From positions 1-61,980 of the forward strand of contig CACXQO010000002.1 of assembly GCA_902769815.1 (NCBI GenBank): 61,980 nucleotides of DNA, written 5' to 3'. The stretch comes from an uncultured Bacteroidia bacterium. Its GTDB lineage: Bacteria > Bacteroidota > Bacteroidia > Bacteroidales > F082. The notes under the pieces were generated by a model that saw nothing but the letters and a program-made list of their open reading frames with translations, did not search any database and had not been told where the DNA came from. Made by a program: the position numbers and the translations under genes. Shown one piece after another: positions 17,031-42,979 of the stretch (positions are counted from its first letter, which is position 1; each line of letters starts with the position of its first letter).

Positions 17031-17074
17031 ATTTAGTAAACAAACAGGTTGATCAACAATACTTTGGCAGCTTT

Positions 17075-18559: not shown

Positions 18560-18589
18560 TTCAGCTATTCCCTAAATTAATAAAACGAG

Positions 18590-21480: not shown

Positions 21481-21518
21481 ACAAGTATTGTCTTTCTTGT
21501 TTTGATGGAACAGGGGGG

Positions 21519-22016
21519 TTAAATCGAACGTTTTATCGTAGGCTCCACGAAGAATACCACTTCTTTATTGTAAGGTTCCTCACAAATACCACTGTCGATG
21601 TCTCCTGTTACAAAAATAGAGACCAAATGCTTTGACTGAACCTTTTTGGTGTGTTGTTGTTTGATACCCGCAGGAATGAGTTTAACCGATACATTGACAT
21701 TTTTGAGTTGTGGAGCGTAAATGGACAAATTCCGTTTGATGCTCTCTTGACATTCATTTTTGGTGATTTCGCGATGTGCTCTTTCGGCCAAAGTGCTGGT
21801 TTGACCGTTATTGAAAGTATTGTATTGGATATTGACATACTCGTAATTCCAATACTCAAAACCAAACTCTGGATCGGCAGAGCAACTACCACGTGGGGTA
21901 TAAGCAATCAATTCAATTAGATTGTTGAGCATAGTCCTCAGCGATTTCAAATCGCGTTTCGGTTGGATGCTCAATAGATTGTCGTCAAAGTCTATCGGTG
22001 TGCTGATATAATTCAT
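21519..22016 (-). CDS. tssE: T6SS baseplate wedge protein TssE (GPW/gp25-like)
   Basis: 165 aa. LRTMLNNLIELIAYTPRGSCSADPEFGFEYWNYEY resembles the gp25 signature (NL..L..T..G.R...P.FG). Confidence 0.7.
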   Translation of the reverse strand: MNYISTPIDFDDNLLSIQPKRDLKSLRTMLNNLIELIAYTPRGSCSADPEFGFEYWNYEYVNIQYNTFNNGQTSTLAERAHREITKNECQESIKRNLSIYAPQLKNVNVSVKLIPAGIKQQHTKKVQSKHLVSIFVTGDIDSGICEEPYNKEVVFFVEPTIKRSI

Positions 22017-22022
22017 CGCATA

Positions 22023-23255
22023 TTAGATTATTATACCCTTCCAATTCTCATAGTCCTTACGCAGAGTCAGTGTATAGGTCTTGACCTCGCTACTCACACC
22101 GTTGGCAACAGCTTTTAATTTGATTTGTACGGTCATATCTGGCTCCGACACTCTTTTCGCATTGAACTTGCTTTCAATGGAGATTTTGTCGCCTACAAGT
22201 TTCTTTGTCGGATCACTCCCATCCGTTGAATAATATACAACAGCTTCTGGGATAGTATTGATAACAGAAACAGTAATGGTGCGTTTGCTACATCTTTGGT
22301 TTAGCTGGTCGGCTGGAATACATGGAGCAGCGATTTTTTCCTCTTTGACCGGCTCTTGATTCTCCTCCATCAGTCCAATCTTTTCCTTAATGGAGAAACA
22401 AATTTCCAAACCTTCCTTGATTTTGCGGTAAGCGTTCTTGAAGTCGTAGGGCGAAAGAGCGTAGTTTCTGAAAGTATTGGCATCGGATAGGGTTAACCTA
22501 TCATCAAGGTCGCAGGCTGTAGTGAAGGCTGCCACAAGCTTCTGGATCTGGGCAGTCAGTGTTATCGGGGTCATCAACTCCCGACCCTTATCGGTGTCTA
22601 TCAGGATTTGTACCAAATTGGGCCAGAATACTCGTATGACATCCCTTGTGTTCGACGGAAGTTGTCTCCTCACCAAGGTCTCTACCTCTGATAGAGTTTG
22701 CAAAAAGCGTTCATACAATTCTTGGCACTTGAAATGAGAGGCTACAAAAAGGCAAGGAGGCACAAAGTCTACATCATCAACGTGCCAACCGCCAATTTCA
22801 GTATCCACAAGCCGGGCAATGGGAACGACATTGTCTGTAATGGGACTGTTGGGTGACACAAGGTCGAAATGGTAGCAAGGCTCTTCAAAGCCGTCAATAG
22901 TCTCTACCCAGTGTTCAGGATCCATCCCGATGGTAAGCAGCAATTCTTTTCCAATCGCATTTTCAGGCAGTTTCACACTCGTTGAGAAATGACAGGAATA
23001 CTGTGTGTCAAAATTGATGTCAATTAAGTTTCCACCTTTGGTGAGAGCGAGGCAACATAGTGATTTAACCTCTATGTTATCCTTGATGATATCAACAGAG
23101 ATGCGGAACGGTTGATGGCAGGGGAGCAGACCAAAGCGTCCAACCGATGCCAGAATCAAAGCGTTTTTTACCCATTCGGCAATAGCCATATCTGAAGCTT
23201 TCATAACCTCATCGGTCAGCCTCATCCCTTTTTTCCAACTAATTCTTCTTTGCAT
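22023..23255 (-). CDS. tssK: T6SS baseplate protein TssK-like, with a C-terminal Ig/chitobiase-C-like module
   Basis: N-terminal RISWKKGMRLTDEVMKASD fits the TssK start (W..GM.L.P.H.Q..D). C-terminal ITVSVINTIPEAVVYYSTDGSDPT. Confidence 0.6.
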   Translation of the reverse strand: MQRRISWKKGMRLTDEVMKASDMAIAEWVKNALILASVGRFGLLPCHQPFRISVDIIKDNIEVKSLCCLALTKGGNLIDINFDTQYSCHFSTSVKLPENAIGKELLLTIGMDPEHWVETIDGFEEPCYHFDLVSPNSPITDNVVPIARLVDTEIGGWHVDDVDFVPPCLFVASHFKCQELYERFLQTLSEVETLVRRQLPSNTRDVIRVFWPNLVQILIDTDKGRELMTPITLTAQIQKLVAAFTTACDLDDRLTLSDANTFRNYALSPYDFKNAYRKIKEGLEICFSIKEKIGLMEENQEPVKEEKIAAPCIPADQLNQRCSKRTITVSVINTIPEAVVYYSTDGSDPTKKLVGDKISIESKFNAKRVSEPDMTVQIKLKAVANGVSSEVKTYTLTLRKDYENWKGIII

Positions 23256-23261
23256 GATGTT

Positions 23262-24140
23262 TTATAGATTCGTATTATAATTCAAATAATAATTTTTTTC
23301 CCCATCCGCAAGGTATATAGGATTATTTGTGCTGATGTCGAATCGTAAAATGTCGTCAATTGCCATGAAATAATCCTGAATGAAACACCGATAAGTTTCC
23401 ACTTCATCAACAAAATGAAGAAAATCCTTTTCCTTGTTGTTTTCTGGCCAAAAATGGATATCATAGATTGTTGATTGGGAATAATACTGGTTACCTACAT
23501 AGAGAGTATCCAAATGGCCGCCCACGCAGTTGTCGTATTTCGGATCTTGGTCAACAAACTCAATCGATTCGTTATGTTTTTTAATAGTTATCCCTTCTTG
23601 TGTAAATACCTTGCGCAACATCAAGGTAAGCAGGGTTTTATTGCCTCTGATGTACTTACATGAAGGAAGAAAAGGGATTGTCTGCCTAACGAATCGATTC
23701 TGAAGTTGCTCATTAGGAATCTCATCGCCAAGAATGTCTATCAATGCCTTGTTGATTTCGACGTAAGCGTTGATTTTTTTCCTGACATCAAGCCGGAGAC
23801 AAAGAAGCATCAAATCGACAGGCTCAAAGAAACGGCGAGCTTGTTTCTTCTCTCGTTCCTGAGCATCGTATTTTTCCTCAAACTTTTCCTTTTCTTCCTG
23901 CTTGGACAGGTTGTCGAATCGGTCTATAGGATGGAACATAAATTCCGGGAGAGTGTCGTAAATACCAGACCGTCCTAATGTGAGTTGCAGCGTTCCATCA
24001 TGCATCTCCTCAATGCCAATCAAGTCATTATAAGCATTACGCTTGTGTAATCCTCTGAACTGCACTTTGCAAGTGCCTTTCGGAAAGTACTCAAGCAGCA
24101 ACTCGGCATTAATATCGTCTGGTATGTTTTTCGGTATCAT
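23262..24140 (-). CDS. Putative T6SS baseplate protein TssG
   Basis: 292 aa. LQLTLGRSGIYDTLPEFMFHPI resembles the TssG GL.G..G.LP motif. Size and position next to tssK/E/F fit. Confidence 0.45.
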   Translation of the reverse strand: MIPKNIPDDINAELLLEYFPKGTCKVQFRGLHKRNAYNDLIGIEEMHDGTLQLTLGRSGIYDTLPEFMFHPIDRFDNLSKQEEKEKFEEKYDAQEREKKQARRFFEPVDLMLLCLRLDVRKKINAYVEINKALIDILGDEIPNEQLQNRFVRQTIPFLPSCKYIRGNKTLLTLMLRKVFTQEGITIKKHNESIEFVDQDPKYDNCVGGHLDTLYVGNQYYSQSTIYDIHFWPENNKEKDFLHFVDEVETYRCFIQDYFMAIDDILRFDISTNNPIYLADGEKNYYLNYNTNL

Positions 24141-24149
24141 AGTTCAAAG

Positions 24150-25373
24150 TCATAAGTACTGTTGGACATCGCCATCAAGTTCCACATAAAACTCACCTTG
24201 CTCTGTGCTGACATGTACCACATCAAATGGCGGTATACCAATTTGTTGCAATGAAAGTTCTTGATAAGGAAAGTACTCGTCTATATTTTCGAAAAACGAC
24301 TTGTGGAACAGTGTTCGATAGCTGAGTTTTCGCAGTTCAGCATCGGAGCTGATGAAAGCATCAAGTTTCGATTCAGGCAACATCACCTCGTATACCTTTT
24401 CAGGTCGGTCAGAGGTAATCTTGTCAACGAACTTGTTGTTACACATATTGATTTCGACCGATTTGACTTTAAGCAAGCATTTCAGTCCAGCAAGAACATC
24501 TTTTACTGACATAGTAGTTGACAGCTGTGGAGCGTTTATGACGGGTTCCCAACGCTCATGTGCAGGACAATTCTTCTTCCATGAAGCAAAACGAAAAATG
24601 TTGGTTGTGTTGGACATACCATCATAATGAAGCATCTTACCTTCAAGCGTTTGGAATTGCGTTTTTTCATCCACATGAATGACTTTCATGGCTTCTTGCA
24701 CCTGGATGGCTCCAATTATGGAAGAACTGATAGGTGTGGTAGCCACACGACCTGCCGAACTTTGACTGCGCATTACGTCAGCACAACCCGTGCGCAACAT
24801 GATTTGATTGAATTCCTCTCGCGAAAGGCCACATTCATAGCAACTGACACCTGGGGCATACACACGGGCTACACCCGTCAAGTTTTCAATACTGCCATCA
24901 ATCCAGGTCTTGCCTGCCCTCATGCACAAACGATTAAGTTGGTAACGTGCTATACGGCTATCAAGACAGCCTATGACCACATCAACTGAGCGATACAGGC
25001 CAAATCCCACCTCAGAGAAAAGATTGCCCACAATGGGTGTCACCTTGATTTGCGGGTTGATTTCCATTGCCCGCTTGGCAACGACGTCTGCTTTATAGGA
25101 ATGGTTGTACGCATCCTCTTCCCTGAACAGCACTGAGCGTGTGAGGTTTGAAATCTCTATTTGATCAAAATCAACCACAAAAATGTGTCCCACACCAAAT
25201 AAAGCCAAGTTTTTAACCACCTCGTTACCGAGTGCACCTGCACCAGCCACCAGAACCCGAGCGTTTTTCACTTTATCTTTCTTGAACCAAGAAAGCAGAG
25301 TAAATACACCCTCACCCCATTCGTATGCTCTTTGTTTTTCCATCAAGTTTTTTTCAAAATCAACATTCAACAT
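24150..25373 (-). CDS. E1-like ubiquitin-activating/adenylyltransferase (ThiF/MoeB/HesA family) with a C-terminal extension of about 170 aa
   Basis: VLVAGAGALGNEVVKNLALFGVGHIFVVDFDQIEISNLTRSVLF (Rossmann/ATP loop) and PGVSCYECG (Cys pair). Likely start at 25373 (MLNVDF) or 25343 (MEKQ). Confidence 0.85.
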   Translation of the reverse strand: MLNVDFEKNLMEKQRAYEWGEGVFTLLSWFKKDKVKNARVLVAGAGALGNEVVKNLALFGVGHIFVVDFDQIEISNLTRSVLFREEDAYNHSYKADVVAKRAMEINPQIKVTPIVGNLFSEVGFGLYRSVDVVIGCLDSRIARYQLNRLCMRAGKTWIDGSIENLTGVARVYAPGVSCYECGLSREEFNQIMLRTGCADVMRSQSSAGRVATTPISSSIIGAIQVQEAMKVIHVDEKTQFQTLEGKMLHYDGMSNTTNIFRFASWKKNCPAHERWEPVINAPQLSTTMSVKDVLAGLKCLLKVKSVEINMCNNKFVDKITSDRPEKVYEVMLPESKLDAFISSDAELRKLSYRTLFHKSFFENIDEYFPYQELSLQQIGIPPFDVVHVSTEQGEFYVELDGDVQQYL

Positions 25374-27777
25374 ATTGGAAAATAGTATCACCGATGGTAA
25401 TAGTATCGCCGTTGGAGAGCGGCACGGGCTTGTTGGTAGGCAATTCAGCGCGTGAATTGAATATGGTTTTCGTAGCCAATGGTTTAAGCATAGCTTGCGA
25501 TAAGGAGTGATCCACATAGAGCTGAGCTTGTTCTTTGGCCACCTTATTGCTCTTTTCCCATGTCATCTGAATCTCGCAACGTTCCGTCATGCCAATGGTG
25601 ACTATGTTGCCGCCCCCCGTAGCATTCATCCACTTGTGGATGGGAATGCGTTGTCCTTCTTTCACGCCGTTCTTGATGACCAGGAAGTATTTTTCAGCCA
25701 ACATTCTGACTGTGACCAAAGAGGCTCCCAAACCACCGCCATAAATGATGAAGTCAAGCAGCCTATTGAGCCACTCCCAACGTGGACTTGCTTTGCTTCG
25801 GCTTGATAGATAAAGAATGACGAATCCGATGACAGCCGACGCAATACCACCTAAGAGAGCACTTTTGACAGGGATACTCGACTTGATGGAAAGGCTAAGC
25901 GAAATGCAGATTGAGAACAGCATATAGGCGGGCAGTGAGCAGTACCACTGGATGGCATGTTCAGACACACTTGACTGCAACCAACAGAAGATGGCACCAC
26001 CCAATGCGAAGGAGGCCATACCGATGATTCCTGACAACAATGACAAGCCTAATACCTTCATTAACGATTTGCTGTCAGTTTTACGCACCCCATCGGTATA
26101 GCGGAACACTATCGACATGAAGAACCCAAGCAGCAAACCAATAGCGAAGAAGGAAGCCACCTTGGCCACGCAATCGTTGAAGATACTGTTTTGTGCTTCG
26201 CTAAGGCATTCATCAACAATGCCGCGTGCCAATCCCATAAAGACACGACCTCTACCGATAAGCTCATACACCAACCAGCTCACCAATCCAGCTACAATGC
26301 CTGCCATCGTTTGGTAACTGTCTCGCAACGTTCCTTTACTGAACAATTGTTTCCAATGTACATGATCCTGAAAACCGTCCTTGCAGTTTTGTCCGTATTC
26401 CGAGCAATGGTAGTTGTTTTGCTGCCAACACTCAACATGCATGATATGCTTGCACCGAGTCACTACCTTTTGTCCAGGAAGGATTTCCTTCCTACAGAAG
26501 TGGCAAACACGATGCGTCACGTTCTCTTCCTGCACATAGCGTTTGTAATACTTTGCCGAGAAAAGCAACGACTTAATCAAAGGGATAAGCCCTTTAATAA
26601 TGAACAAGTAACAAACGATGGTGAGAAGGGTAATCAGGAGTGCCATCAACAACTTTATCGTCCAATCAACAACATTGGGCTCGCGCTTGGGCCAAGGATC
26701 TTCCTCAGCTCCGATGGAATAAATACACTCTCCTTTGTATAAACCATCCCAAACGGCCTTATAGTTTACTCTGTTTCCCCTATAGCAGTTGTTTTCCGAA
26801 ACCCTATACGTGTAAGTGAAGTCCGCCATAGCGTTTCTGGCAGCCTGCTCCAAGCCCTCTTTCACATCTGCCATATCATTGGCAGGCAGATACTTACCTT
26901 TTCTTTCCATGATGACTGTTCCATCTTCGCGCCGAGGTTCGGTGATATTCTGTAATGTACGCGAGACCCTTTCATCTTCTCCATTACCCGTATGATAGAA
27001 GGCATACACCTGCGGAACCACTATGGAATCGTTATTCTGGTATTCGGTGACCTGAATAAAATTAATAACCTCCTCAACTTCAGGTTTCATGCTACCATCA
27101 GCGATGAGGAATAGCAAGTTCTTTCCGGGATGGTTGGCCGCTCGTACGGAAATAATTGTGTTTTGCTCGTACCCAGGCTCCTTATTGACATACTGGAGCA
27201 AATCCGAATTGGTATTGGTAAACTCAAACTCAGCCAGTTTTGCATACACGGCACCATAGAAATTCTTCGTCTGCGTACCTTGCTCAAATCGAGCGTCAAA
27301 GTCGGAGAAATTAGCCTTGGTGACCATCTCGCTCTTTGAAACCTGTTCACCATAGAATGAAAGGTAAACACAACTGTCGTGGGCACTTTCAACCAACTCG
27401 CCAATAACTTGACGTATCTGTCTCTTGCCGTCTTCGGGAATGTTGAGGTCAACCAATATGGAAATGGTATAGTCTGAAGGAATACGCTGGCCCGAAGTAA
27501 GCATTCGAATTGTTCGGCACTCGTTGGAAATCGTATCGCCGTCTTCAATGACAAGGAGATGCCGATTCATATCCTCCACGTCCAGTCCGAGCTCTTTTCT
27601 CTCGCCGTTGTCGATCTTCAGAAACAGGGTGAGGCTGTCATTCCCAATTCCATAGTCATATTGCTTATCAATGAATTGGATTCCATCCACAGTTTGGGCA
27701 CCAAGCGGCATTGCCCATACCATTAAAACCAAAAGTGCCAATAGTTTCGTGTAAGTTATCTTTTTCTTCTTGTCCAT
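25360..27777 (-). CDS. Polytopic membrane protein: signal peptide, periplasmic domain, TM, RING-H2-like zinc finger, six TM helices and a C-terminal FHA-like domain
   Basis: CHFCRKEILPGQKVVTRCKHIMHVECWQQNNYHCSEYGQNC = C-x2-C-x13-C-x-H-x2-H-x2-C-x7-C-x6-C. The C-terminal ...VTIGMTERCEIQM...LSNGDTITIGDTIFQYVEC has FHA topology. Confidence 0.7.
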   Translation of the reverse strand: MDKKKKITYTKLLALLVLMVWAMPLGAQTVDGIQFIDKQYDYGIGNDSLTLFLKIDNGERKELGLDVEDMNRHLLVIEDGDTISNECRTIRMLTSGQRIPSDYTISILVDLNIPEDGKRQIRQVIGELVESAHDSCVYLSFYGEQVSKSEMVTKANFSDFDARFEQGTQTKNFYGAVYAKLAEFEFTNTNSDLLQYVNKEPGYEQNTIISVRAANHPGKNLLFLIADGSMKPEVEEVINFIQVTEYQNNDSIVVPQVYAFYHTGNGEDERVSRTLQNITEPRREDGTVIMERKGKYLPANDMADVKEGLEQAARNAMADFTYTYRVSENNCYRGNRVNYKAVWDGLYKGECIYSIGAEEDPWPKREPNVVDWTIKLLMALLITLLTIVCYLFIIKGLIPLIKSLLFSAKYYKRYVQEENVTHRVCHFCRKEILPGQKVVTRCKHIMHVECWQQNNYHCSEYGQNCKDGFQDHVHWKQLFSKGTLRDSYQTMAGIVAGLVSWLVYELIGRGRVFMGLARGIVDECLSEAQNSIFNDCVAKVASFFAIGLLLGFFMSIVFRYTDGVRKTDSKSLMKVLGLSLLSGIIGMASFALGGAIFCWLQSSVSEHAIQWYCSLPAYMLFSICISLSLSIKSSIPVKSALLGGIASAVIGFVILYLSSRSKASPRWEWLNRLLDFIIYGGGLGASLVTVRMLAEKYFLVIKNGVKEGQRIPIHKWMNATGGGNIVTIGMTERCEIQMTWEKSNKVAKEQAQLYVDHSLSQAMLKPLATKTIFNSRAELPTNKPVPLSNGDTITIGDTIFQYVEC

Positions 27778-29381
27778 ATCTTCAAGTCTTCTAATTGTTG
27801 TTCACCATAATAGTTTTCGTCCGTGCAAAGGTTGCCATCAATGATGGGAATAGAGGTAAGAAGCCCATCGGAGGTGGAATAGACCAGCACGAACTTGATG
27901 TCGCCCAACTGTTGGGCAATGGCTTTCTTGACCGATGGAATGCTACAGTGCGTCACCATGACGAAAGCACCTATCGGATTGCAATCGACCACGTTCTCAT
28001 CATCGGTGACTTTGACAACGACATACTCCTTTACGTCTTTTCGTTCAATGGGATAGCCATAAACCGTTGAAACAAGTTCTCCGCTATGTTCGACAGCTAA
28101 CAGACCCATGTCGATGATAGCTCCATTGCTTAATTCAATACCATGGCAATTGTTACTACGCTGTTTTGCTCTTTCCAAACCGTTTCGATAATCCTCGGCG
28201 TTGAATGAATTGCGTTCCTGTTCCACCGCCCATTGATACCACTCTTCCAGCGAAAAGAGCTGTTTCATTTCAATGCGTGAGTTGATGGTACCGTCGTGTT
28301 TGAATGTAAACAATCCCATTTCTTGTTGGGGAGTAAGGATGTCGACCACAAGAGCCGTCAGGAAGTTAGGGTGCGATGGATGCTTCAGTAGGTTCTGCAC
28401 GCTACAGTCGTTGTTGCTGAAAAACACACCCAAGCCTGGATGCGAGTGTACCCAACAAGTCAAATCGTATTGTATATCAGTTTCCACTCGGAGTTTTTTC
28501 AGCTTCTCCCTTACATCCATCTTGATTTTTCCGCCAAAATTCAATTCATATTCCGTAAATACGGCATCGTTGCCCGGAAGCACAACGTGTTCCAAAGTGA
28601 CATAGTAATCGTTGGCTTTCTTGTCTTGAACCCAGCGACCCAACACCATGCAGCCGTCTTCCTTAGGATTTTCAGGATTACGGAGGTCATTAGCATACAT
28701 ATTATATATTTCTTTGATGCATGCTGTCTTGATGTAAACTTGTTTCACCGCCGAGTCATCGACAAAGCTATTACAGTCAATCTCCATATAATTGTCATTG
28801 CCAATTACATCGTCAATGTTTTGTTTACGCTGTATAGCAGTAGTCTTGTGGCGAATAACGATATTAGAATCATCAATATCTGTTTCTTTCCCTATTGTCT
28901 GTACCAGAGTTGGCTTTACTCTTTTCTTGCGTTTGCCGATGAAGACGAGGATAATGATAATAACTAACAAACCGACAACGCCAAGTCCTGCCAGCAAAAG
29001 AAGTCGTTTTATTTCCGCCTCATGCTTTCTTTGTTCTATCTCATTTCTGACCATAGTCTTCATCTCTATGCAGCAAAGCTCATTAGTTAGCCAATTATCT
29101 CCCTCCTTTACTATCTTGATTTCATCGCAGGAAGGGAAAATTTGCAAGAGAAAATTTACCACAAATGTATCTAGCTTTTTTTCTTTATCGGTATCAGATA
29201 GTGTATCGATATCAGGCAGTTGACCCACTGTGTCTAGGTATTTTTCAAAATTGGCGATGATAATTTCCTTATTCACCGATCCGTCTTCGTTTTTCTGTAG
29301 GTCAATTTGAGCCCATACACCACCCCAAAAGCCAAGGAATGTCAATAGGGCTATAATGGTTTTAATATGCTTTTTCATCAT
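27756..29381 (-). CDS. Membrane-anchored JAB/MPN (JAMM) metallopeptidase
   Basis: Signal peptide MMKKHIKTIIALLTFLGFWGGVWAQ. TM helix LLLLAGLGVVGLLVIIIILVFIG followed by KRKKR. JAMM motif WVHSHPGLGVFFSNNDCS (HxH-x7-S-xx-D). Confidence 0.8.
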   Translation of the reverse strand: MMKKHIKTIIALLTFLGFWGGVWAQIDLQKNEDGSVNKEIIIANFEKYLDTVGQLPDIDTLSDTDKEKKLDTFVVNFLLQIFPSCDEIKIVKEGDNWLTNELCCIEMKTMVRNEIEQRKHEAEIKRLLLLAGLGVVGLLVIIIILVFIGKRKKRVKPTLVQTIGKETDIDDSNIVIRHKTTAIQRKQNIDDVIGNDNYMEIDCNSFVDDSAVKQVYIKTACIKEIYNMYANDLRNPENPKEDGCMVLGRWVQDKKANDYYVTLEHVVLPGNDAVFTEYELNFGGKIKMDVREKLKKLRVETDIQYDLTCWVHSHPGLGVFFSNNDCSVQNLLKHPSHPNFLTALVVDILTPQQEMGLFTFKHDGTINSRIEMKQLFSLEEWYQWAVEQERNSFNAEDYRNGLERAKQRSNNCHGIELSNGAIIDMGLLAVEHSGELVSTVYGYPIERKDVKEYVVVKVTDDENVVDCNPIGAFVMVTHCSIPSVKKAIAQQLGDIKFVLVYSTSDGLLTSIPIIDGNLCTDENYYGEQQLEDLKIWTRRKR

Positions 29382-29384
29382 CTG

Positions 29385-30569
29385 TCAAATTGAGATTCTT
29401 TTATTACCTTTTTCTTTCATGGTCTTATCAACACTTTTCTGTAGGGCATTCTTGCCTTTTTGCTCCACGGAATTCATGGTTTGGTTGGTTTTGCTTTTAA
29501 TGGCTGACTGCGCTTTTCTTTTGGCTATACCTTCTGCTTGTTTTGCAGCATCTTGCTGCATCTGCATCATGCTGCGCTGGGTACGGCGGTTGCGTATGGT
29601 CTGCATCACTTGGCCACCCACAAAGAGTAACACCGCCAACAAAGCACCACCGATAAGCATCCACATGTTACGTTTCTTCTGTTCTTCTTCCTTAGCCTTG
29701 ACAGCCTGAGCCTCACGCTCCTGTTCCTTCTTTATCGAATCCTGAATGGCCTGTTGTTGCTGTTGAATCTTTTTATCGTATTCAGCTTTCATCGCCTTTT
29801 CTTTGACATCATATTGGGCGAGAATGTCATCTATCATCTTAACGATGTTGTCGTCCTTTACTTCGCTTCGCTGTTTTCTCAGTGCCCTCACCTCCTCTGT
29901 CAGATACTCCTCAAAAGGATATTCCTTCTGGCGTGACAACAACTCAACAATGTTATTGGCACGCTTGATGGCAATGGCATCAGTTTCCGAAAGGCTCTCG
30001 ACTTCTTCTTCAATAATCTCCACTGATGTTTGGGTTACAGTAGGCTGAACAGCCGTCGTCTTTGTTGCAGGAATTGGGTCTATCTTAACTTTCAACTCAC
30101 CACAACTGGCAAAAACCTTATAATGCAATTTCCTTTCATAGTGTGCCAAAAAAACGGGTATGGACAATATAGTACTCTCGTCATCTATCAGCTCAAACGA
30201 GATGGATGGCTGCTGCTGCACAAGATAATAGCCGTAGCTAGTTGACTTTCTCCGAAGGCTGGCTGGCACGGTGAAAGCCTTGATATCATCACCCTTAAAC
30301 ACGGTACCGTCGCTATAGACACCAATATGATCAAAAAACACCACGGCCACCTCTTCCAATTTGTTGTATTTGCGGGCATAAGTCGGTCCCAAGATCTTGC
30401 TTGCGCTACTAAAGTTAAGCACAGCTACACCGTCCTCTATGTTCACATCGTATGTGATGGTAACACGGTCGCCAGAAGGAGATTCAAGCGTTTCGGTGAC
30501 CTTGTTGGCCATTAATGTGCTGCATAGCATTAGTGCTATCCACAAACAAATGAATTTACCACTTTTCAT
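29385..30569 (-). CDS. Exported protein with a coiled-coil and a C-terminal TM anchor. Function unknown (membrane-complex candidate).
   Basis: Signal peptide MKSGKFICLWIALMLCSTLMA. Lys/Glu/Gln-rich coiled coil. TM helix MWMLIGGALLAVLLFVGGQVM followed by a basic tail. 4-nt overlap with the upstream gene. Confidence 0.6.
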   Translation of the reverse strand: MKSGKFICLWIALMLCSTLMANKVTETLESPSGDRVTITYDVNIEDGVAVLNFSSASKILGPTYARKYNKLEEVAVVFFDHIGVYSDGTVFKGDDIKAFTVPASLRRKSTSYGYYLVQQQPSISFELIDDESTILSIPVFLAHYERKLHYKVFASCGELKVKIDPIPATKTTAVQPTVTQTSVEIIEEEVESLSETDAIAIKRANNIVELLSRQKEYPFEEYLTEEVRALRKQRSEVKDDNIVKMIDDILAQYDVKEKAMKAEYDKKIQQQQQAIQDSIKKEQEREAQAVKAKEEEQKKRNMWMLIGGALLAVLLFVGGQVMQTIRNRRTQRSMMQMQQDAAKQAEGIAKRKAQSAIKSKTNQTMNSVEQKGKNALQKSVDKTMKEKGNKRISI

Positions 30570-31627
30570 TTCTGTGAATTGTAGTATTTCGTGATTCTGT
30601 CGTAGTAATCAATAATTCCGTCCTTATATTTGTTCTGTTTTTTCCATTCAGCTGCATGGCTCCTGCATGTTTTGTCAGTGCAACATTTATACATGGCTTT
30701 AACTTGCAGCATTTCTTCCTTGGTGAGTTCCTTTTTGGGATAGACTTTTTCCTGATACAAGTCATCAAATGCATCATAGATTTCCTCCAATGTCAGCTTG
30801 CAATATTTACAGTAATGGTTGAAAGTGTGTTCGTCAGGATTACCACAGTCGGCTTCTTTAAACTCGATGTCGTCGAGTTGTTGCTTCAATTCATTGTATT
30901 TTCTGTATTTGAAGCTTTTTGCTGGCCATTGTTGCAATTTCAAATTGATAGCAAGGCGGAGGTCACTCACCTCATTCTTATAAGGCTGTTCCCTTTCCTC
31001 CAACGAGGGTTTGTGCTTCGGGTTGTTGCAGAATGTCAGGTGTGATATGACCTCAGCAATGGAGTCGCACGACTTCTTTATGGCAGGATAGCCCTCATCA
31101 GGTGTAAGTTCAACGGAGATGATAAGTTTTTCAACATGCTTCTCCATCAATGCCGCTTTCTTGGAGCATTTCTTTATAGCCATATAGAAAGGCAGCTTGA
31201 TTTCGAGGGTCTCATCTTCTGTCATTTGCAGATGACTGATTCGATAGTTGGAGCTATTGGGAGCCAGTCCCACCACATCTCTGCCCAACTGCTCACAGTA
31301 GTCGGTGTAACGCGGTTTCTTCACGGGATAGTTCCAATCATAGACAACGCGGGGATTCTTAAGACCACGCAGTTGCTTTTCATCAAAAGAACGTCCAAAC
31401 AGAAAGAGCATATTGTTGGAGACCTCATTCGGATTTATCACTTCCACCATGATGTCCACCCTTCCTTGGGCATCCGGCTCACCCATAGTGACATTGATAT
31501 TGACATACCCTAATTCAAGGCTCTTTTGATTGTCGTCCTCATTGAGCACAATTTTGTATTCGCCATCAGCAAAGACAGAAAGTGCAGTAAGTAGGGTTAG
31601 CAGTATGGTAAAAATGGTTTTCCTCAT
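30566..31627 (-). CDS. Secreted protein of unknown function with a Cys-rich C-terminus
   Basis: Signal peptide MRKTIFTILLTLLTALSVFA. C-terminal CGNPDEHTFNHYCKYCK...YKCCTDKTCRSH. 4-nt overlaps with both neighbours. Confidence 0.6.
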   Translation of the reverse strand: MRKTIFTILLTLLTALSVFADGEYKIVLNEDDNQKSLELGYVNINVTMGEPDAQGRVDIMVEVINPNEVSNNMLFLFGRSFDEKQLRGLKNPRVVYDWNYPVKKPRYTDYCEQLGRDVVGLAPNSSNYRISHLQMTEDETLEIKLPFYMAIKKCSKKAALMEKHVEKLIISVELTPDEGYPAIKKSCDSIAEVISHLTFCNNPKHKPSLEEREQPYKNEVSDLRLAINLKLQQWPAKSFKYRKYNELKQQLDDIEFKEADCGNPDEHTFNHYCKYCKLTLEEIYDAFDDLYQEKVYPKKELTKEEMLQVKAMYKCCTDKTCRSHAAEWKKQNKYKDGIIDYYDRITKYYNSQK

Positions 31628-32289
31628 ATTACAAGTTTTTTGGGCAGTGTCTTTTTGGGCTTGGACGTATCTTGCTGTTCAATGACAGGCTCTTGGGGAT
31701 GTGGCTTGGGTTTGTCGGCTTCGACCTGTGCAAAGTGTGTCCAGCCATTTGGTTCAGCTTCTTCGCGTACCCATTCCGCTACATTCTGGTCTTCAGGATA
31801 AGGATAGGTGTTGGCAGCGTGGTAGAGCTTGTACTTCAGGTAACGCTCCACACGCAGAATAAGGTCTTTCAAGGAGGCCATCACGCCCATCTCCTTGATG
31901 GTGAGGCAGACATGACCCTTGAAACTGCCTGAATAGCGGATGTTGGGATGCCATACATTGGTAAGGAAAGTAAATATAGGATTACCATCAGCCGACGGGT
32001 AGTTGTTGGGCAGCACTATGCTCATTTTATGCAAAGTACCGAATACTGGCTTACGTGGTATGGTGGAGCCTTCCACACCGATGATAGACTTGACGCGATA
32101 CCAGATTTCGTATTCGGTGGGAATACCCAAGCTGTTCTTCTTGCGGATGATATAAGAAATGGAAGGCTCGCGGGGATTCGCTTCCTTGCGCTTGGCGCAG
32201 AGGGTGTCGATATCCTTCCACTCAATCCAGAGGCGGGCGTTGCGCCCTGTTAGCTCTTTTTGGTTGAAGTTATTTATTATTTCATTCAT
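31624..32289 (-). CDS. E2-like ubiquitin-conjugating enzyme (UBC fold)
   Basis: LPNNYPSADGNPIFTFLTNVWHPNIRYSGSFKGHVCLTIKE: HPN motif with the catalytic Cys at canonical UBC spacing. Likely start MNEIINNF at 32289. Confidence 0.85.
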   Translation of the reverse strand: MNEIINNFNQKELTGRNARLWIEWKDIDTLCAKRKEANPREPSISYIIRKKNSLGIPTEYEIWYRVKSIIGVEGSTIPRKPVFGTLHKMSIVLPNNYPSADGNPIFTFLTNVWHPNIRYSGSFKGHVCLTIKEMGVMASLKDLILRVERYLKYKLYHAANTYPYPEDQNVAEWVREEAEPNGWTHFAQVEADKPKPHPQEPVIEQQDTSKPKKTLPKKLVI

Positions 32290-32309
32290 AGCTGATATTA
32301 TTATGGGAT

Positions 32310-32636
32310 TCAACCCGCGATGGGAACCGAAACAAGGTGCAGGTGGTCGCCTGGACGGATGCCATAGTCCATGAGGCATTGCTCGCGACCGTTCTCATCC
32401 TCAAATTCCAGGATTTCCGACTCGCCACCTTCTTCCATCACCTGACCCAACAGATACTTCACGGGATTGCCGCCGCCATCTATCTTAGGCAGCTCAAATA
32501 CCTGCACAATGCTGTTGATTTGGTCGCGGATGGTCTTGTTGGGGTCGTTAACTTTCACTTCCACTTCCTCATACGAAGTGTTGTCGATAGTCAAATGAAT
32601 GATGAATTCCTCATCGAATACTTGTTCGTTTTCCAT
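32310..32636 (-). CDS. Ubiquitin-like beta-grasp protein (YukD/EsaB-like) ending in Gly
   Basis: 108 aa. ...CLMDYGIRPGDHLHLVSVPIAG-stop. The C-terminal Gly codon (GGT) was verified on the DNA immediately before the TGA. Confidence 0.65.
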   Translation of the reverse strand: MENEQVFDEEFIIHLTIDNTSYEEVEVKVNDPNKTIRDQINSIVQVFELPKIDGGGNPVKYLLGQVMEEGGESEILEFEDENGREQCLMDYGIRPGDHLHLVSVPIAG

Positions 32637-32683: not shown

Positions 32684-33745
32684 TTACCAGATCCACGCGC
32701 CGCGAGGTTGGTTATAGTTCGGGCTGCGATATTGTTCAAACTTGTTCTTGAAGACAATGAGTTGATAGGCATCTTCAGAGATGGGTTTCGGCTCGTTCAT
32801 TCCGTAGCGGTAGAGTGCCAATTCATATTTCTTCTTTTCTGGGTCAATATGGATGACAAAATCCGTTTTAGTATCGGGGTGGATGCCGTAAAACTTATCG
32901 AATACCGCACGAATGGCTTCGTCTTCAAACCAGAAGTAGGCTATATATTCCGACTTCTTGATGTGCCATTTCACCGCCAGCTTCTTTGGCTTGCCCGCTT
33001 CGTGGTAGTTGAGTAACCCACCATCGTGCAGCTTGTCATGAGTGCCATCGTAAAGAGTTTCCTCGATGTAGTCCAGTTCGGGCTTTGTCTCTTGTTCTTC
33101 CTCCGTGTATTGTTGCCACTTCTCTTCATCCTTGTCCCAATGTCTGAACATCGGTAAATAGCGGTAGGTGAACTGCTTCATATAGTTGTCGAAGAGGTCG
33201 CGGGGGGGGAGGCTGTTGGTGGAGAGGTTTTGTTTAGCCGATGGAATTTGTTCTATTAATTGGTTACAATATTGGTGAAGCGTTTGTCCTGAATAGAATG
33301 GTAAGAAATCCTCCATTTCGATTTCTGTTAAGATACCTTGTAAGCAATCTATAATTACGGATTTATTTCTGCCATGAAACCAAATGGCAACTTTTCCGTA
33401 TGGTGCCATACCGACTACAATGTGACTGAATGAAGTGTTTTCATCCATTTCATAATAGTTCCATTTCTGTATCATAAGGTCGACAGGTAAAGTTGCCTCG
33501 ACTTCATAGAACTTTTGTTCTGTTATAGCCAACCATAATAAGTTAAGTTTTGTCGGCATAGGAAAATCTTCACGCAAAGGCAGTACTTCAGAAATAACAT
33601 CTCCCCATTCACCGTAATACGGTAATGCCTTTGGTATTTCTATTGCCTCATTTTCAGAGTACCATAACAAGCCAAACAATGTGTCTGTTGGGTACAATTT
33701 TGGGGCGTTTCCAGAAACTTGGATTGTATATTCAGTATTATCCAT
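32684..33745 (-). CDS. Hypothetical protein downstream of the Tle1-like effector (immunity or accessory candidate). No signal peptide.
   Basis: 353 aa. 8-nt overlap with the effector gene stop. Trp/Tyr-rich. Contains a C8 run in the coding strand (33202-33209). Confidence 0.55.
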   Translation of the reverse strand: MDNTEYTIQVSGNAPKLYPTDTLFGLLWYSENEAIEIPKALPYYGEWGDVISEVLPLREDFPMPTKLNLLWLAITEQKFYEVEATLPVDLMIQKWNYYEMDENTSFSHIVVGMAPYGKVAIWFHGRNKSVIIDCLQGILTEIEMEDFLPFYSGQTLHQYCNQLIEQIPSAKQNLSTNSLPPRDLFDNYMKQFTYRYLPMFRHWDKDEEKWQQYTEEEQETKPELDYIEETLYDGTHDKLHDGGLLNYHEAGKPKKLAVKWHIKKSEYIAYFWFEDEAIRAVFDKFYGIHPDTKTDFVIHIDPEKKKYELALYRYGMNEPKPISEDAYQLIVFKNKFEQYRSPNYNQPRGAWIW

Positions 33746-35786
33746 TTATTTGGATTGATTTCGTTCCATATGCTGCCATCTCATACATATAGTGTACATT
33801 ATTCGTGTGGTCACCTGACAAAGTTTCATCTCCGTCATACATTATTCTACAAATATTGGCATCATTATCGTAATTACAGTTATTGCCAAAATTTCCCCAA
33901 TTCTTTTCCAATTTTGTGAAAGGAAACTTGCTGTCTTTATCTTCGTGAGATTTGTCTTCGTCAACCTTACTTCTAAAATGAAATATTTCACATGATGAAG
34001 TGAAATGAAGGTATTTCAGACGAAGTTTTCTATAAAAAGCTCCAGAATAACCACCATTGGGCATTAACCACACTCTTTGTCCAGCAGGTTTTTCAATTTT
34101 GCTAATCATGCTCTCTCCAAGTGTCTCTAAATCATCAGGGATACAATAAGGATCTGTTTTTTCTTTGAAAAGCCAATTGATACCGCAAGTCTCAACACTT
34201 TTTTTCATCATATTCAATGGAATATTACCATATCCACCTAAAGCATATCTTTTGAACTTGATTTCGTTTGGCCAATCTGCAACCCTTAAAGTATAAGGCT
34301 TCCCGTCTGGGGCAAGGTCCATAGTGTTATTTGAAGAACCATCAAACCATTCTTTTCCGACCCACCCTAATGTTGCTAAAGTATTAGGAGACAAAATCTC
34401 TTTTTGTCCTGCTTCGTTCATTGGATTATTAAGAAACATTTTTGCACGGTCTTTTGACTTTAAGTAAAAGAATCCCAAAACCTCGAATAATTTATTGCTT
34501 TTTATGAAATGTTCGAGTTTTCTTGGAATGAATTTATATAAAACAATGTCCATGTCTGTCTTGGTAACATAACCACCACCAACATCAGAATGGCAGCCAG
34601 GAATGATGATTTCCATAGCGTTTTCGGGCATTGTTTTTCCCAAATTTACCAAAGCGAAGTTTTCCCTAAACTCATCTGCAGCACATATATGGCAAGTATG
34701 AAGTACTCTTTTGTTGTGTGGGGAATACAATCCATAATCATGAGCATTCATATAATGGAAATTGCCATGATAATTGTTCCACCAAAAGCCTCTGTAAGCC
34801 AAACTTAATGCATTTGTCCATCCATCCTTTTGTTTGAGGAAACCAATAGATGCGACTGTGTCATAAATTCCTAAGAAATCGACCGTTACATTGTCTCTTT
34901 TAATATATACACCCTTCCCGTCTTTCACTAAAAATTCGGTTTCCATAAAAGGTAATCTTCCGCTTTTCTCATCGTATAATGCTTTGGCTTTGGAAGTTTC
35001 TTGTCCAAATTCTTTTTCTCTATCAAGTCTTTTGCCAATATCACGGGTTACCAATTCAGAAAACAAACGGGCGCAAGTAGAACCACGACTAAAACCAAAC
35101 ACATAGAAATGATATTTTGTATCATCTGAGAGAATGGAAGTGTTTGTCTTTAGATAAGAATAGATATGTTTTACGGCTTTACTTACAAGTGCTGTAACTC
35201 CCGTTTTTCCTAAGCCGAAACCTAAACCATTGATATTACCTTCATTATGCGTTTCTCCTTGTGATGTTTGTATATCATTGGCCCCGCTTCCTTCAATAAA
35301 TAAGTTATGGTATAGATTGTCACTGGTATTAAACTGATACTTTAACAGACTATGTAAAATTGCGACATTGGAATAACCATTTTCAGAGTCTGCATGCATA
35401 ACATTCGTGTTGATTTTGGTTTCCGCTTGAAACTTGTCTATTTTTTCATTGACTATTTCCAAGTCTTTCTGCATGGCAAGTATTTGTTCTGTCTGTATTG
35501 AATTAATATTCAAGCCATCAAAGGAACTTGTTGCCAAAGCAATTGCCGTCATTAATTCCTTCTGTCGTTGTAGTAATCCTGAAATATTCTCATAGTTCTT
35601 TTTTAGTGGCAGAGTTTTTTCTGACGATATTTTTTTGCTTTTATAGGTGTGAAAAAGCGCAGTTTGTATCATGTTGTTGTTTGTTCCGTCAAAGAATACA
35701 CCAATATGAACATCTTTTACTTTTTGAGTTTCAGAAGGATTCTGTTTTTCAGGCTCTTCTGCATCTACATAATTACTTGTACCCAT
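33738..35786 (-). CDS. T6SS phospholipase effector, Tle1/DUF2235-like alpha/beta hydrolase
   Basis: N-terminal HIGVFFDGTNNN and nucleophile elbow FGFSRGSTCAR (GxSxG), both DUF2235 hallmarks. 682 aa. Confidence 0.7.
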   Translation of the reverse strand: MGTSNYVDAEEPEKQNPSETQKVKDVHIGVFFDGTNNNMIQTALFHTYKSKKISSEKTLPLKKNYENISGLLQRQKELMTAIALATSSFDGLNINSIQTEQILAMQKDLEIVNEKIDKFQAETKINTNVMHADSENGYSNVAILHSLLKYQFNTSDNLYHNLFIEGSGANDIQTSQGETHNEGNINGLGFGLGKTGVTALVSKAVKHIYSYLKTNTSILSDDTKYHFYVFGFSRGSTCARLFSELVTRDIGKRLDREKEFGQETSKAKALYDEKSGRLPFMETEFLVKDGKGVYIKRDNVTVDFLGIYDTVASIGFLKQKDGWTNALSLAYRGFWWNNYHGNFHYMNAHDYGLYSPHNKRVLHTCHICAADEFRENFALVNLGKTMPENAMEIIIPGCHSDVGGGYVTKTDMDIVLYKFIPRKLEHFIKSNKLFEVLGFFYLKSKDRAKMFLNNPMNEAGQKEILSPNTLATLGWVGKEWFDGSSNNTMDLAPDGKPYTLRVADWPNEIKFKRYALGGYGNIPLNMMKKSVETCGINWLFKEKTDPYCIPDDLETLGESMISKIEKPAGQRVWLMPNGGYSGAFYRKLRLKYLHFTSSCEIFHFRSKVDEDKSHEDKDSKFPFTKLEKNWGNFGNNCNYDNDANICRIMYDGDETLSGDHTNNVHYMYEMAAYGTKSIQING

Positions 35787-35899
35787 ATCAAAACTTTACT
35801 GCCTCCATAAGAAAATTAGATTACTAAATTTGTCATAACTTTACGAAAAGTCCTGCATATTATTTGAGTTTCAGAAATCATGCTTATTTATAAATACCT

Positions 35900-36385: not shown

Positions 36386-36389
36386 AATT

Positions 36390-37316: not shown

Positions 37317-37317
37317 A

Positions 37318-38646: not shown

Positions 38647-38658
38647 GTCATTATGGTT

Positions 38659-40896: not shown

Positions 40897-40918
40897 TTGT
40901 TATTATGTTTGTTGATTA

Positions 40919-42976: not shown

Positions 42977-42979
42977 GGG

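Follow-up and report, generated by a model that had tools for sequence, protein, structure and literature searches.

The question raised by this locus is why a type VI secretion system (T6SS), a bacterial "nano-harpoon", should carry among its genes what appears to be a complete ubiquitin-like (Ubl) conjugation set, comprising the tag, an E1, an E2, a RING ligase and a de-tagging peptidase. The locus lies in a window of 61,980 nucleotides of an uncultured Bacteroidia bacterium (order Bacteroidales, F082; assembly GCA_902769815.1, contig CACXQO010000002.1). The initial annotation, made from the sequence alone, described seven consecutive minus-strand genes encoding such a set and proposed that they might regulate the assembly or turnover of the T6SS, or modify or load its cargo. 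The arrangement does not appear in the T6SS literature that was searched, and it was found here as a fixed part of the core genes of a T6SS present in many gut and rumen Bacteroidales.

Seven consecutive genes within a T6SS locus

A first step was to examine whether the genes exist as described, and this observation was confirmed exactly. Each of the seven open reading frames has an ATG start, a stop codon and no internal stops, and the motifs previously pointed out (...PIAG-stop, WHPNIRYSGSFKGHVCL, HSHPGLGVFFSNND, AGAGALGNEV and CYEC) are all present. The genes of the block and of its surroundings are the following:

32684..51729 (-), upstream T6SS genes: DUF2931, Tle1-like effector, DUF4280/PAAR-like, a 442-aa protein with an OMP-barrel-like C-half, a T9SS-tail protein, VgrG, four Hcp, a TssB-TssC fusion, UpxY/NusG-like, TssC, TssB and ClpV
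32310..32636 (-), Ubl, 108 aa, ending ...SVPIAG-stop with a free C-terminal Gly108
31624..32289 (-), UBC-type E2, 221 aa, with an HPN motif (H114-P-N116) and the catalytic Cys128
30566..31627 (-), 353-aa protein of unknown family, predicted periplasmic, with an N-terminal signal peptide or anchor (hydrophobic segment 4-22) and a conserved Cys/His cluster
29385..30569 (-), 394-aa bitopic membrane protein of unknown family: signal peptide, periplasmic domain, coiled coil, TM 304-322 and basic cytoplasmic tail
27756..29381 (-), membrane-anchored JAMM/MPN+ peptidase, 541 aa: signal peptide, TM 128-146 and cytoplasmic JAB domain (E241, H312, H314, S322, D325)
25360..27777 (-), 805-aa polytopic protein: signal peptide, periplasmic vWA-like domain (~100-330), TM (369-410), cytoplasmic RING-H2-like finger (C425 C428 C442 H444 H447 C450 C458 C465), six long helices (481-694) and C-terminal FHA-fold domain (697-804)
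24150..25373 (-), ThiF/E1-like activating enzyme, 407 aa: GxGxxG 44-49, D138, C178xxC181 with C269xxH272 as the predicted Zn site by analogy with MoeB/ThiF, crossover-loop Cys197 as the predicted catalytic Cys, and a conserved C-terminal ~130 aa of unknown fold
19603..24140 (-), baseplate genes directly downstream: a 292-aa protein in the TssG position (unassigned), TssK (22023-23255), TssE/gp25-like (21519-22016) and a 625-aa protein in the TssF position
15483..19597 (-), conserved tail of the locus: glucosaminidase/LysM peptidoglycan hydrolase (18590-19597), Ser/Thr protein kinase (17075-18559) and WG-repeat protein (15483-17030)

The junctions are tight, with a 47-nt gap upstream of the Ubl, a 20-nt gap between Ubl and E2, 4-nt overlaps between E2 and the 353-aa gene and between the latter and the 394-aa gene, a 3-nt gap before JAB, overlaps of 22 nt (JAB/RING) and 14 nt (RING/E1), and a gap of 9 nt to the next gene. 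Co-transcription is inferred from this spacing and not shown. The longest possible frames for E2 (to 32379) and E1 (to 25517) run further upstream, but the shorter starts agree with the orthologue alignments. Two points of the initial annotation had to be refined: the 394-aa protein is a bitopic membrane protein and not simply exported, and the neighbor labelled "tssG?" could not be assigned to any family. The baseplate assignments rest on weak VasE/TIGR03353 and gp25 hits, whereas the genes of the conserved tail were identified with Pfam. In the related loci the baseplate genes always follow the E1 gene.

Family assignments and conserved residues

The domain calls of the initial annotation hold, although with unequal strength. 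The E1 is a strong ThiF match (6.2e-52), and its best PDB matches are the eukaryotic UBA7/UBA6/UBA3/SAE2, ahead of MoeB/ThiF. The E2, the JAMM peptidase and the RING finger match only weakly in profile searches, but their catalytic or zinc-binding residues are strongly conserved. The E2 reached 26.7 bits with Pfam UQ_con, against a cut-off of 27, whereas PF00179 is precomputed on 117 of the 120 listed homologs; profile hits were obtained to eukaryotic E2-25K and others in the PDB, and the HPN/Cys128 motif is present in 83/84 orthologs. The JAB protein shows the exact JAMM motif, HxHx7Sx2D, in 79/79 orthologs, together with an invariant Glu, its best PDB matches are the Caldiarchaeum Rpn11-like protein (6fjv), CSN5 and Rpn11, and 36/36 members hit Prok-JAB. 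The RING-H2-like ligand pattern is present in 78/78 orthologs, with RCHY1 RING-H2 as the best PDB sequence match, and the invariant residues listed above support the E1. For the 353-aa protein no Pfam, NCBIfam or PDB match was found.

The architecture of the 805-aa protein was derived from an AF2 model (pLDDT 76), in which Foldseek detected similarity to integrin I/VWF-A domains and to the FHA domains of DgcB, EmbR and GarA. However, the FHA-fold domain has lost the canonical GR / SxxH / NG phosphothreonine-binding residues, so that an otherwise attractive link between this domain and the kinase encoded in the locus is doubtful. RING, JAB and the FHA fold lie on the cytoplasmic side of membrane proteins that also carry periplasmic domains.

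The weakest assignment is that of the Ubl. The protein ends in IAG, with an exposed Gly, in 81/82 orthologs, and divergent lineages end in IAG-SHP, IPG or TAG, so that the Gly is kept in every lineage seen. Its C-terminal segment aligns to ubiquitin DGRTLSDYNIQKESTLHLV, and some members give weak Pfam ubiquitin and YukD hits. In contrast, the beta-grasp fold is only weakly supported, because the AF2 model has low confidence (pLDDT 39.5), hhalign gave a probability of 54% on 19 columns, and Foldseek returned no significant hit, with EccD among the non-significant fold matches. Ubl, E2 and E1 are the best-conserved proteins of the locus, with a median identity of 70-75%, compared to 43-63% for TssK, VgrG and ClpV.

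Linkage to the T6SS and comparison with known systems

Gene neighborhoods were surveyed for the linkage of the module to the T6SS. The block was found between the effector region and the baseplate genes in all 84 genome and metagenome loci, from about 80 Bacteroidales species, with identical gene order and no rearrangement, which indicates that the arrangement is not due to chance; the 353-aa protein (about 30% identity) was present in 81/84 and the 394-aa protein in 80/84 of these loci. When the survey started from the baseplate side, 66/66 metagenome loci had the E1 upstream, with RING in 58/58 and JAB in 57/57, while the glucosaminidase and the kinase were found in 47/51 and 43/45, respectively. 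The tail genes occur in close and distant relatives. Cultured carriers of the module include Xylanibacter muris PMUR and Bacteroides hominis Tbg-374. Overall, strict synteny was observed in about 170 loci surveyed from both directions, and the module is retained inside three more divergent T6SS architectures. The initial interpretation, as regards both the domains and their embedding in the T6SS, is therefore supported, although its functional proposal remains an untested inference.

The locus shares with the Bacteroidota T6SS-iii (Coyne 2016, PMC4714493; Bongiovanni 2024, PMC10781749) ClpV, TssB, a T6SS-iii-type TssC (PF17541), Hcp/TssD (called from size and paralogy, with PF17642 hits on the Hcp genes of related loci), VgrG, PAAR-like, TssE and TssK. 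It also carries envelope proteins of unknown family with single TM helices and one with a vWA domain, and TssR has a vWA-like domain as well. However, nothing lies between the TssG-position gene and tssK (a 6-nt gap), where tssN normally sits (Bongiovanni 2024), and no gene of the locus matched a T6SS membrane-complex family in Pfam or NCBIfam, so that TssNQOPR homologs were not detected. This absence rests on the failure of sequence profiles, given that Pfam holds TssN/TssO/TssR models; remote homology of the 353-aa and 394-aa proteins to TssO/Q/P, or of the vWA domain to TssR, is not excluded, and the search did not extend to the rest of the genomes. Instead, the locus has Ubl, E1, E2, a RING E3, a JAMM peptidase, a Ser/Thr kinase and a peptidoglycan hydrolase. 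The statement in the initial annotation that described T6SS-iii loci are not defined as containing such a set agrees with Coyne 2016 and Bongiovanni 2024, neither of which mentions ThiF, JAB or FHA.

The same five components are found in the eukaryote-like operon of Candidatus Caldiarchaeum subterraneum (Ub, E1, E2, small RING protein and Rpn11-like JAMM), described by Nunoura 2011, Hennell James 2017 and Fuchs 2018. As mentioned above, the best solved relative of the JAB profile is the Caldiarchaeum protein and E1 and E2 resemble eukaryotic enzymes most closely, while one lineage has a Ubl with a short tail after the Gly, implying JAMM maturation. In contrast, here the RING and JAMM proteins are integral membrane proteins with periplasmic domains, the RING is fused to vWA and FHA-fold domains, the Ubl ends in AG and not GG, and the whole set is embedded in a secretion-system locus. 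The nearest non-T6SS relative found is a free-standing operon, designated L093, which encodes vWA, a ThiF E1 (43.5% identical), a small RING protein, a YukD-like Ubl ending in TAG, an E2 (43.5% identical) and two JAB proteins. Operons of this class, which were predicted by Burroughs, Iyer and Aravind (Mol Biosyst 2011), a work that may already describe part of what is presented here, are probably the evolutionary source of the module. L093 has no T6SS genes, its RING and vWA are separate small proteins and it is associated with a CHAT protease gene, whereas in the window the vWA, RING, TM and FHA-fold parts are fused and the operon is wired into a T6SS.

Two other secretion systems offer partial parallels. 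The Pseudomonas aeruginosa H1-T6SS is controlled by threonine phosphorylation (PpkA kinase, Fha1, PppA, TagQRST), and the present locus likewise combines a conserved Ser/Thr kinase with an FHA-fold domain on a T6SS-linked membrane protein, which would represent post-translational control of assembly; yet the Arg/Ser/Asn phosphothreonine-binding residues are lacking, no phosphatase gene was seen, and the main post-translational chemistry encoded is Ubl conjugation. Type VII secretion loci also encode small ubiquitin-like parts (YukD/EsaB, EccD cytoplasmic domain), but YukD/EsaB have no E1, E2 or JAB partners and are not known to be conjugated, while here a full conjugation set is present.

Possible roles of the module

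Among the alternatives to a conjugation cascade acting on the T6SS itself, a purely structural role survives best, although it is considered unlikely. In this view, the membrane proteins would be an alternative membrane complex and the Ubl would act non-covalently as a scaffold or docking piece, like YukD/EsaB or the ubiquitin-like cytoplasmic domain of TssN, without protein conjugation mattering. TssN docks the baseplate through such a domain and was not detected here, some Ubl members hit YukD weakly, and the four envelope proteins have topologies like those of membrane-complex subunits. However, the catalytic Cys of E2, the adenylation and Cys residues of E1, the full JAMM motif and the RING ligands are invariant or nearly so, and the C-terminal Gly is kept even in the lineage with a removable tail, a conservation that is hard to explain without catalysis.

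Somewhat less likely is a role directed to the cargo, raised in the initial annotation, in which effectors, VgrG/PAAR or Hcp would be tagged for loading, or the Ubl or its conjugates would themselves be delivered to target cells. The block does begin 47 nt downstream of the effector/immunity genes, and a RING E3 could select cargo. Nevertheless, it lies in the conserved part of the locus while the adjacent effector genes vary, the enzymes are membrane-tethered next to the baseplate genes, and the stronger conservation of Ubl, E2 and E1 relative to any structural gene is unlike effectors, although it does not exclude a loading function.

An independent anti-phage or conflict system (Bil-, Bub- or CBASS Cap2/Cap3-like) merely traveling with the T6SS island is very unlikely. 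Known bacterial E1/E2/JAB/Ubl sets are defense systems, more distant E2 relatives occur with an EAD11 domain or with CHAT and vWA genes outside T6SS loci, and the E1 adenylation domain matches CBASS "E1-E2" models weakly. But the module was never separated from the T6SS genes in the about 170 loci or the three divergent architectures, its junctions with both flanks are tight, and PADLOC gave no hits for Ubl, E2, JAB or RING. Bil, Bub and CBASS systems are cytosolic, have no RING E3, often carry fused E1 and E2 and are not T6SS-linked, and the membrane anchoring and RING E3 are unlike Bil or CBASS. Finally, a sulfur-carrier or biosynthetic ThiS/MoaD-ThiF pathway can be practically dismissed, since the E1 also matches ThiF and MoeB models but all equivalog scores are far below their cut-offs, eukaryotic E1s score higher, an E2, a RING and a JAMM peptidase are present, and sulfurtransferase or cofactor genes are absent.

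All these observations could be best integrated, with moderate confidence, by assuming that the seven genes are a fixed core module of a distinct lineage of Bacteroidales T6SS, in effect a fourth genetic architecture beside GA1-3, without detectable TssNQOPR genes, and that they encode an enzymatically intact, eukaryote-like cascade tethered to the inner membrane. While the gene content, the conserved catalytic residues, the topology and the strict linkage to the T6SS are demonstrated by this analysis, the enzymatic activity, the membrane-complex role, the substrates and the regulatory purpose are inferred, and conjugation, substrates and any effect on secretion have not been tested by experiment. 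In the proposed mechanism, which derives from family knowledge, the soluble E1 would adenylate Gly108 of the Ubl and take it onto Cys197, and the Ubl would then pass to Cys128 of the E2. The RING finger, on the cytoplasmic face of the vWA-RING-FHA-fold protein, would recruit E2~Ubl and direct transfer to lysines of proteins at the T6SS assembly site, whereas the JAMM peptidase would remove the tag and, in lineages whose Ubl carries a short tail after the Gly, would also mature the precursor. The 353-aa, 394-aa, JAB and RING proteins probably form, or belong to, the envelope-spanning anchor of this T6SS. In this model, reversible Ubl tagging most likely controls the docking, assembly or turnover of the baseplate and membrane complex, and it may act together with the conserved Ser/Thr kinase and peptidoglycan hydrolase encoded at the end of the locus.

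The seven-gene block and the surrounding locus

The observation made in the initial annotation, a block of seven consecutive minus-strand ORFs encoding a putative ubiquitin-like conjugation set within a T6SS locus, held in full, since the ORFs, their lengths, their start and stop codons and every junction reported there were found to be correct. The upstream DUF2931 gene lies 47 nt from the Ubl gene, and 20 nt separate Ubl from E2. The E2 gene and that for the 353-aa protein, as well as the genes for the 353-aa and 394-aa proteins, overlap by 4 nt, while a 3-nt gap separates the 394-aa protein gene from JAB. Finally, JAB and RING overlap by 22 nt, RING and E1 by 14 nt, and the next gene lies 9 nt away. 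The longest ORFs for E2 and E1 extend further upstream, but orthologue alignments support the shorter starts chosen in the initial annotation. The block lies in a T6SS locus that runs on the minus strand from about 51.7 kb to 15.5 kb and contains, in this order:

ClpV, TssB (48981-49445) and TssC (47590-48960)
Two Hcp genes
A UpxY/NusG-like antiterminator gene (45648-46304)
A TssB-TssC fusion ORF of 593 aa (the UpxY/NusG-like gene and this ORF together span 43891-46304)
Two more Hcp genes, followed by VgrG (the four Hcp genes lie within 42980-43853 and 46738-47561)
A T9SS-sorted protein (38659-40896) and a 442-aa coiled-coil protein (37318-38646)
A DUF4280/PAAR-like protein, a 161-aa ORF of unknown family (35900-36385), a Tle1-like effector and DUF2931
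The seven-gene block
A 292-aa protein, TssK, a TssE/gp25-like protein and a 625-aa protein
A glucosaminidase/LysM peptidoglycan hydrolase, a Ser/Thr kinase and a WG-repeat protein (15483-19597)

The 593-aa ORF fuses a TssB-like part (residues 40-159, 32% identical to TssB) to a TssC-like part (residues 173-589, 37% identical to TssC), and looks like a second, fused sheath paralogue. Of the four Hcp/TssD paralogues (130-135 aa), three are 45-62% identical to each other, whereas the one next to VgrG is only 26-28% identical to the others. GC content is about 0.50 in the left flank (positions 1-14000), which holds housekeeping genes (porin, Na/H exchanger, prolyl oligopeptidase, UvrD), and 0.35-0.47 across the T6SS region. 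Beyond ClpV lie a Schlafen/AlbA_2 gene (53301-54512) and a DUF3854/DUF5906 primase-like gene (54844-57081). No tRNA gene was found as an island boundary, and a sigma-70 promoter and terminator scan, which is not suited to Bacteroidota, gave results no different from shuffled sequence and hence no conclusion on transcription units. The T6SS probably sits on an acquired or mobile island.

Family assignment of the encoded proteins

A failure of profile or structure searches to place the ORFs in the UBC, ThiF/E1, JAMM and beta-grasp families had been set out in advance as grounds for discarding the proposal. The outcome differed among the proteins, the E1 being a secure assignment and the Ubl the weakest. 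The E1 is a ThiF-family enzyme (PF00899, 6.2e-52, 176.6 bits against a cut-off of 28.1), and a profile of 32 orthologues hits eukaryotic UBA7, UBA6, UBA3, SAE2 and UBA1 ahead of MoeB, MccB and ThiF. The GxGxxG nucleotide loop (G44/G46/G49), D138, C178xxC181, C269xxH272 and the crossover-loop C197 are invariant in the 32 aligned orthologues, the roles of the Cys and His residues in Zn binding and thioester formation being inferred by analogy with MoeB/ThiF. The E2 scores 26.7 bits on UQ_con, 0.3 below the cut-off of 27, although 117 of the 120 listed homologues carry a precomputed PF00179 hit. Its fold was not modelled, but its profile finds only eukaryotic E2s in the PDB (E2-25K and others, E = 0.0015), and the HPN motif with the downstream catalytic Cys128 (WHPNI...G.VCL) is present in 83/84 orthologues.

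The JAB protein carries a signal peptide and one TM helix in front of the JAB domain. Pfam scores are below the gathering cut-off, but the exact JAMM signature (E241, H312-x-H314-x7-S322-x2-D325) is found in 79/79 orthologues, and its closest solved relatives are the Caldiarchaeum Rpn11-like protein, CSN5 and Rpn11.

The 805-aa protein was modelled with AF2 at a mean pLDDT of 76. The model shows a signal peptide, a periplasmic alpha/beta domain, a long TM helix, a small zinc-finger region, six long helices and a C-terminal beta domain. Foldseek matches the periplasmic domain to integrin I and VWF-A domains. The eight ligands of the RING-like finger (C425-x2-C428-x13-C442-x-H444-x2-H447-x2-C450-x7-C458-x6-C465) are invariant in 78/78 orthologues, with the last pair spaced x6 rather than x2. 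Pfam RING families score below their cut-offs, the best PDB match being RCHY1 RING-H2 at E = 0.016, and neither binding of E2~Ubl nor stimulation of transfer was assayed. In Foldseek, the C-terminal domain matches FHA domains of DgcB, GarA and CEP170 at TM (target) 0.58-0.70, and EmbR, whose full-length chain gives about 0.2, all with probability 0.99-1.0. Pfam FHA scores 20.1 bits against a cut-off of 20.7, and local pLDDT is only 41-76. However, the canonical phosphothreonine-binding residues (GR, SxxH, NG) are absent: hhalign to GarA and Rad53 FHA1 places G-M for G-R and A-K-E-H(Q) for S-R-x-H, with no NG(T), and these substitutions are conserved family-wide. Phosphothreonine binding is therefore doubtful, which weakens the idea of a phospho-relay from the kinase to the FHA-fold domain.

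In the case of the Ubl, no Pfam hit exists for the window protein. An AF2 model built from a 36-sequence alignment reached a pLDDT of only 39.5, because the family is too uniform, although it shows a strand-strand-helix-then-strands order. Foldseek on this model gave nothing significant, with beta-grasp domains in the top ranks. In hhalign, the probability against ubiquitin/NEDD8 is 54% on the last 19 columns, compared with 0.6% for a control. Single-domain ubiquitin hits in the PDB have E = 0.18-1.3, and among 14 members two hit Pfam ubiquitin and one YukD, weakly. Taken together, these data neither establish nor exclude a beta-grasp fold, and the claim stays weak. In its favour, the C-terminal stretch GRE.ALIDYNIQPGDHLHLISVPIAG resembles ubiquitin's DGRTLSDYNIQKESTLHLV, and the protein ends in an exposed Gly, available for adenylation (...IAG-stop), in 81/82 orthologues. 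Divergent lineages end IPG, TAG or IAG-SHP. Two variants (L059:9641-9976 and L088:9649-9942, in related loci) carry short tails after the conserved IAG (AG-GSKK and IAG-SHP), being precursor forms that would need C-terminal processing. This is the pattern expected of a conjugated modifier that is sometimes made as a precursor.

The 353-aa and 394-aa proteins have no detectable relatives of known function. Profile searches of both, and of the 292-aa protein, against PDB sequences and Pfam found nothing, so that they are left here without a family and the 292-aa protein is referred to by its TssG position only. By hydrophobicity, the 353-aa protein (30566-31627, minus strand) is periplasmic, and its conserved Cys/His cluster (C200, H205, C261, C273, C276, C315) suggests disulfides or a metal site in the periplasm. 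The 394-aa protein is bitopic, with a basic cytoplasmic tail.

Linkage of the block to the T6SS

A survey of gene neighbourhoods had been put forward beforehand as a test of the association. A search with the E2 found 413 close homologues, and a scan of one genome per species found 95 carriers, including Muribaculaceae, Prevotellaceae, Alistipes, Barnesiella, Paraprevotella, Xylanibacter muris and a complete Bacteroides hominis genome. In all 84 loci examined, the order is the T6SS sheath, spike and effector genes, then Ubl, E2, 353, 394, JAB, RING, E1, the 292-aa protein and TssK, without rearrangement and with absences only at contig ends. The converse survey, started from the baseplate side with the 292-aa protein as a query on metagenome contigs and counting only loci with enough flank, gave the following counts.

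Presence of each gene in metagenome loci (loci with the gene / loci with enough flank)
E1: 66/66
RING protein: 58/58
JAB: 57/57
E2: 48/49
TssK: 66/66
TssE: 63/63
TssF-position protein: 54/54
Glucosaminidase: 47/51
Ser/Thr kinase: 43/45

The glucosaminidase/LysM hydrolase and the Ser/Thr kinase, which follow the baseplate genes, are conserved across this T6SS lineage. In addition, Ubl, E2 and E1 are the most conserved proteins of the locus, with a median identity of 70-75%, against 43-63% for TssK, VgrG and ClpV.

A full HMMER search with the E2 profile found 237 clusters. Three more distant relatives (loci L088/L089, L090 and L092) are again inside T6SS loci, but with a different layout: Ubl, E2, one or more unknown proteins, a roughly 1000-aa JAB protein, a vWA/RING/FHA protein, an outer-membrane beta-barrel protein and then E1. 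The C-terminal half of the 442-aa protein of the window is homologous to these OMP_b-brl_2 barrel proteins (L088:17995-18963, L090:20057-21025, L092:17508-18470), being a candidate outer-membrane part of the apparatus. Likewise, a protein with a T9SS C-terminal sorting domain (Por_Secre_tail) lies next to VgrG in the window and in the divergent T6SS loci (L088:7580-9619, L090:8675-9607, L092:6941-8956), which hints at a recurring T6SS/T9SS connection. A still more distant relative, L093 (L093:3032-13892), is a free-standing operon holding a CHAT protease, two unknown proteins, vWA, E1 (43.5% identity), a small RING protein, a YukD-like Ubl ending TAG, E2 and two JAB proteins, next to a Bacteroidota-type hybrid two-component regulator, and it is the closest non-T6SS relative of the module that was found. 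Another, L091, is an E2 fused to an EAD11 domain. Thus, the T6SS appears to have captured a pre-existing bacterial ubiquitin-like operon and then fused the vWA and RING parts into a polytopic membrane protein.

Described Bacteroidota T6SS-iii systems depend on TssNQOPR, with tssN located between tssK and tssG, and TssN uses a ubiquitin-like cytoplasmic domain to dock the baseplate (PMC10781749). All three Bacteroidales architectures carry these genes (PMC4714493). In the window, TssB, TssC (PF17541), Hcp/TssD, ClpV, VgrG, TssE and TssK are present, while the TssF- and TssG-position proteins are unassigned. In contrast, only 6 nt separate the TssG-position gene from tssK, and no gene of the locus hits a T6SS membrane-complex family, with no TssN/O/R Pfam hit even at E <= 1 for the seven proteins, although TssC and TssD models do hit. 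Pfam holds TssN, TssO and TssR models, but this negative is at the sequence level and covers the locus, not whole genomes. The four envelope proteins of the block have the topologies one would expect of membrane-complex parts, and TssR also has a vWA-like domain.

A proposed membrane-anchored conjugation cascade

The interpretation offered in the initial annotation, that of a ubiquitin-like conjugation set belonging to a T6SS, was supported by these data. The best-supported reading is an active E1-E2-RING cascade with a JAMM eraser, held at the cytoplasmic face of the inner membrane and built into the T6SS envelope complex, which would reversibly tag T6SS components. Gene content, residue conservation, topology and linkage come directly from the analysis, whereas the chemistry, the membrane-complex role, the substrates and the purpose are inferred. 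The conserved kinase suggests a second regulatory layer, but the FHA fold cannot be assumed to read phosphothreonine.

Among the alternatives, a cargo-loading role is not excluded. A purely structural role is contradicted by the invariant catalytic residues. A hitch-hiking defence system of the Bil or CBASS Cap2-Cap3 type was rejected, as it is contradicted by the unbroken linkage (the context is always a T6SS) and by PADLOC, in which only the E1 adenylation domain hits 'E1-E2' models (<= 54 bits), and Ubl, E2, JAB and RING give nothing. A sulfur-carrier pathway is contradicted by the scores and the gene content.

A bolder and doubtful possibility, although not ruled out, is that in this T6SS lineage covalent and reversible attachment of a free ubiquitin-like protein replaces the built-in ubiquitin-like docking domain of TssN. 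In this view, the membrane RING E3 would tag a membrane-complex or baseplate subunit to license baseplate docking and firing, the membrane JAMM peptidase would reset the site, and ClpV might handle tagged components much as Cdc48/p97 handles ubiquitylated proteins. That would be the first bacterial secretion machine whose assembly cycle is run by a ubiquitination-type cascade, and also a tractable bacterial model of E1-E2-RING-DUB signalling at a membrane.

Both T6SS-iii and prokaryotic ubiquitin-like systems are known, but the coupling between them appears undescribed and is experimentally tractable. Full-text searches found no paper linking a T6SS with an E1/E2/Ubl/JAB/RING set, and the papers most likely to mention it, such as Zhang 2012 and Iyer 2011, do not. 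However, Burroughs, Iyer and Aravind 2011 (PMC5938088) predicted prokaryotic RING/E2/E1/JAB/YukD-like Ubl operons, and the Pfam note on Prok-RING_1 states that the bacterial versions have TM helices. Some of these proteins may have been seen before. T6SS surveys of gut Bacteroidales use the three known architectures, GA1-3, as queries, and one such survey found no T6SS in Segatella or Hoylesella (PMC10942478). The fourth type considered here, which those surveys would miss, occurs in at least 95 species representatives and in hundreds of gut and rumen metagenome contigs, among them Prevotellaceae, Muribaculaceae, Alistipes, Barnesiella and Bacteroides.

This system offers a case in which a complete E1-E2-RING-DUB cascade with eukaryote-like enzymes can be tested in a bacterium, with a clear readout (Hcp secretion, killing) and in cultured hosts (Xylanibacter muris, Bacteroides hominis). 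It bears on what anchors T6SS-iii variants that lack TssNQOPR, and also on what prokaryotic ubiquitin-like systems did before eukaryotes.
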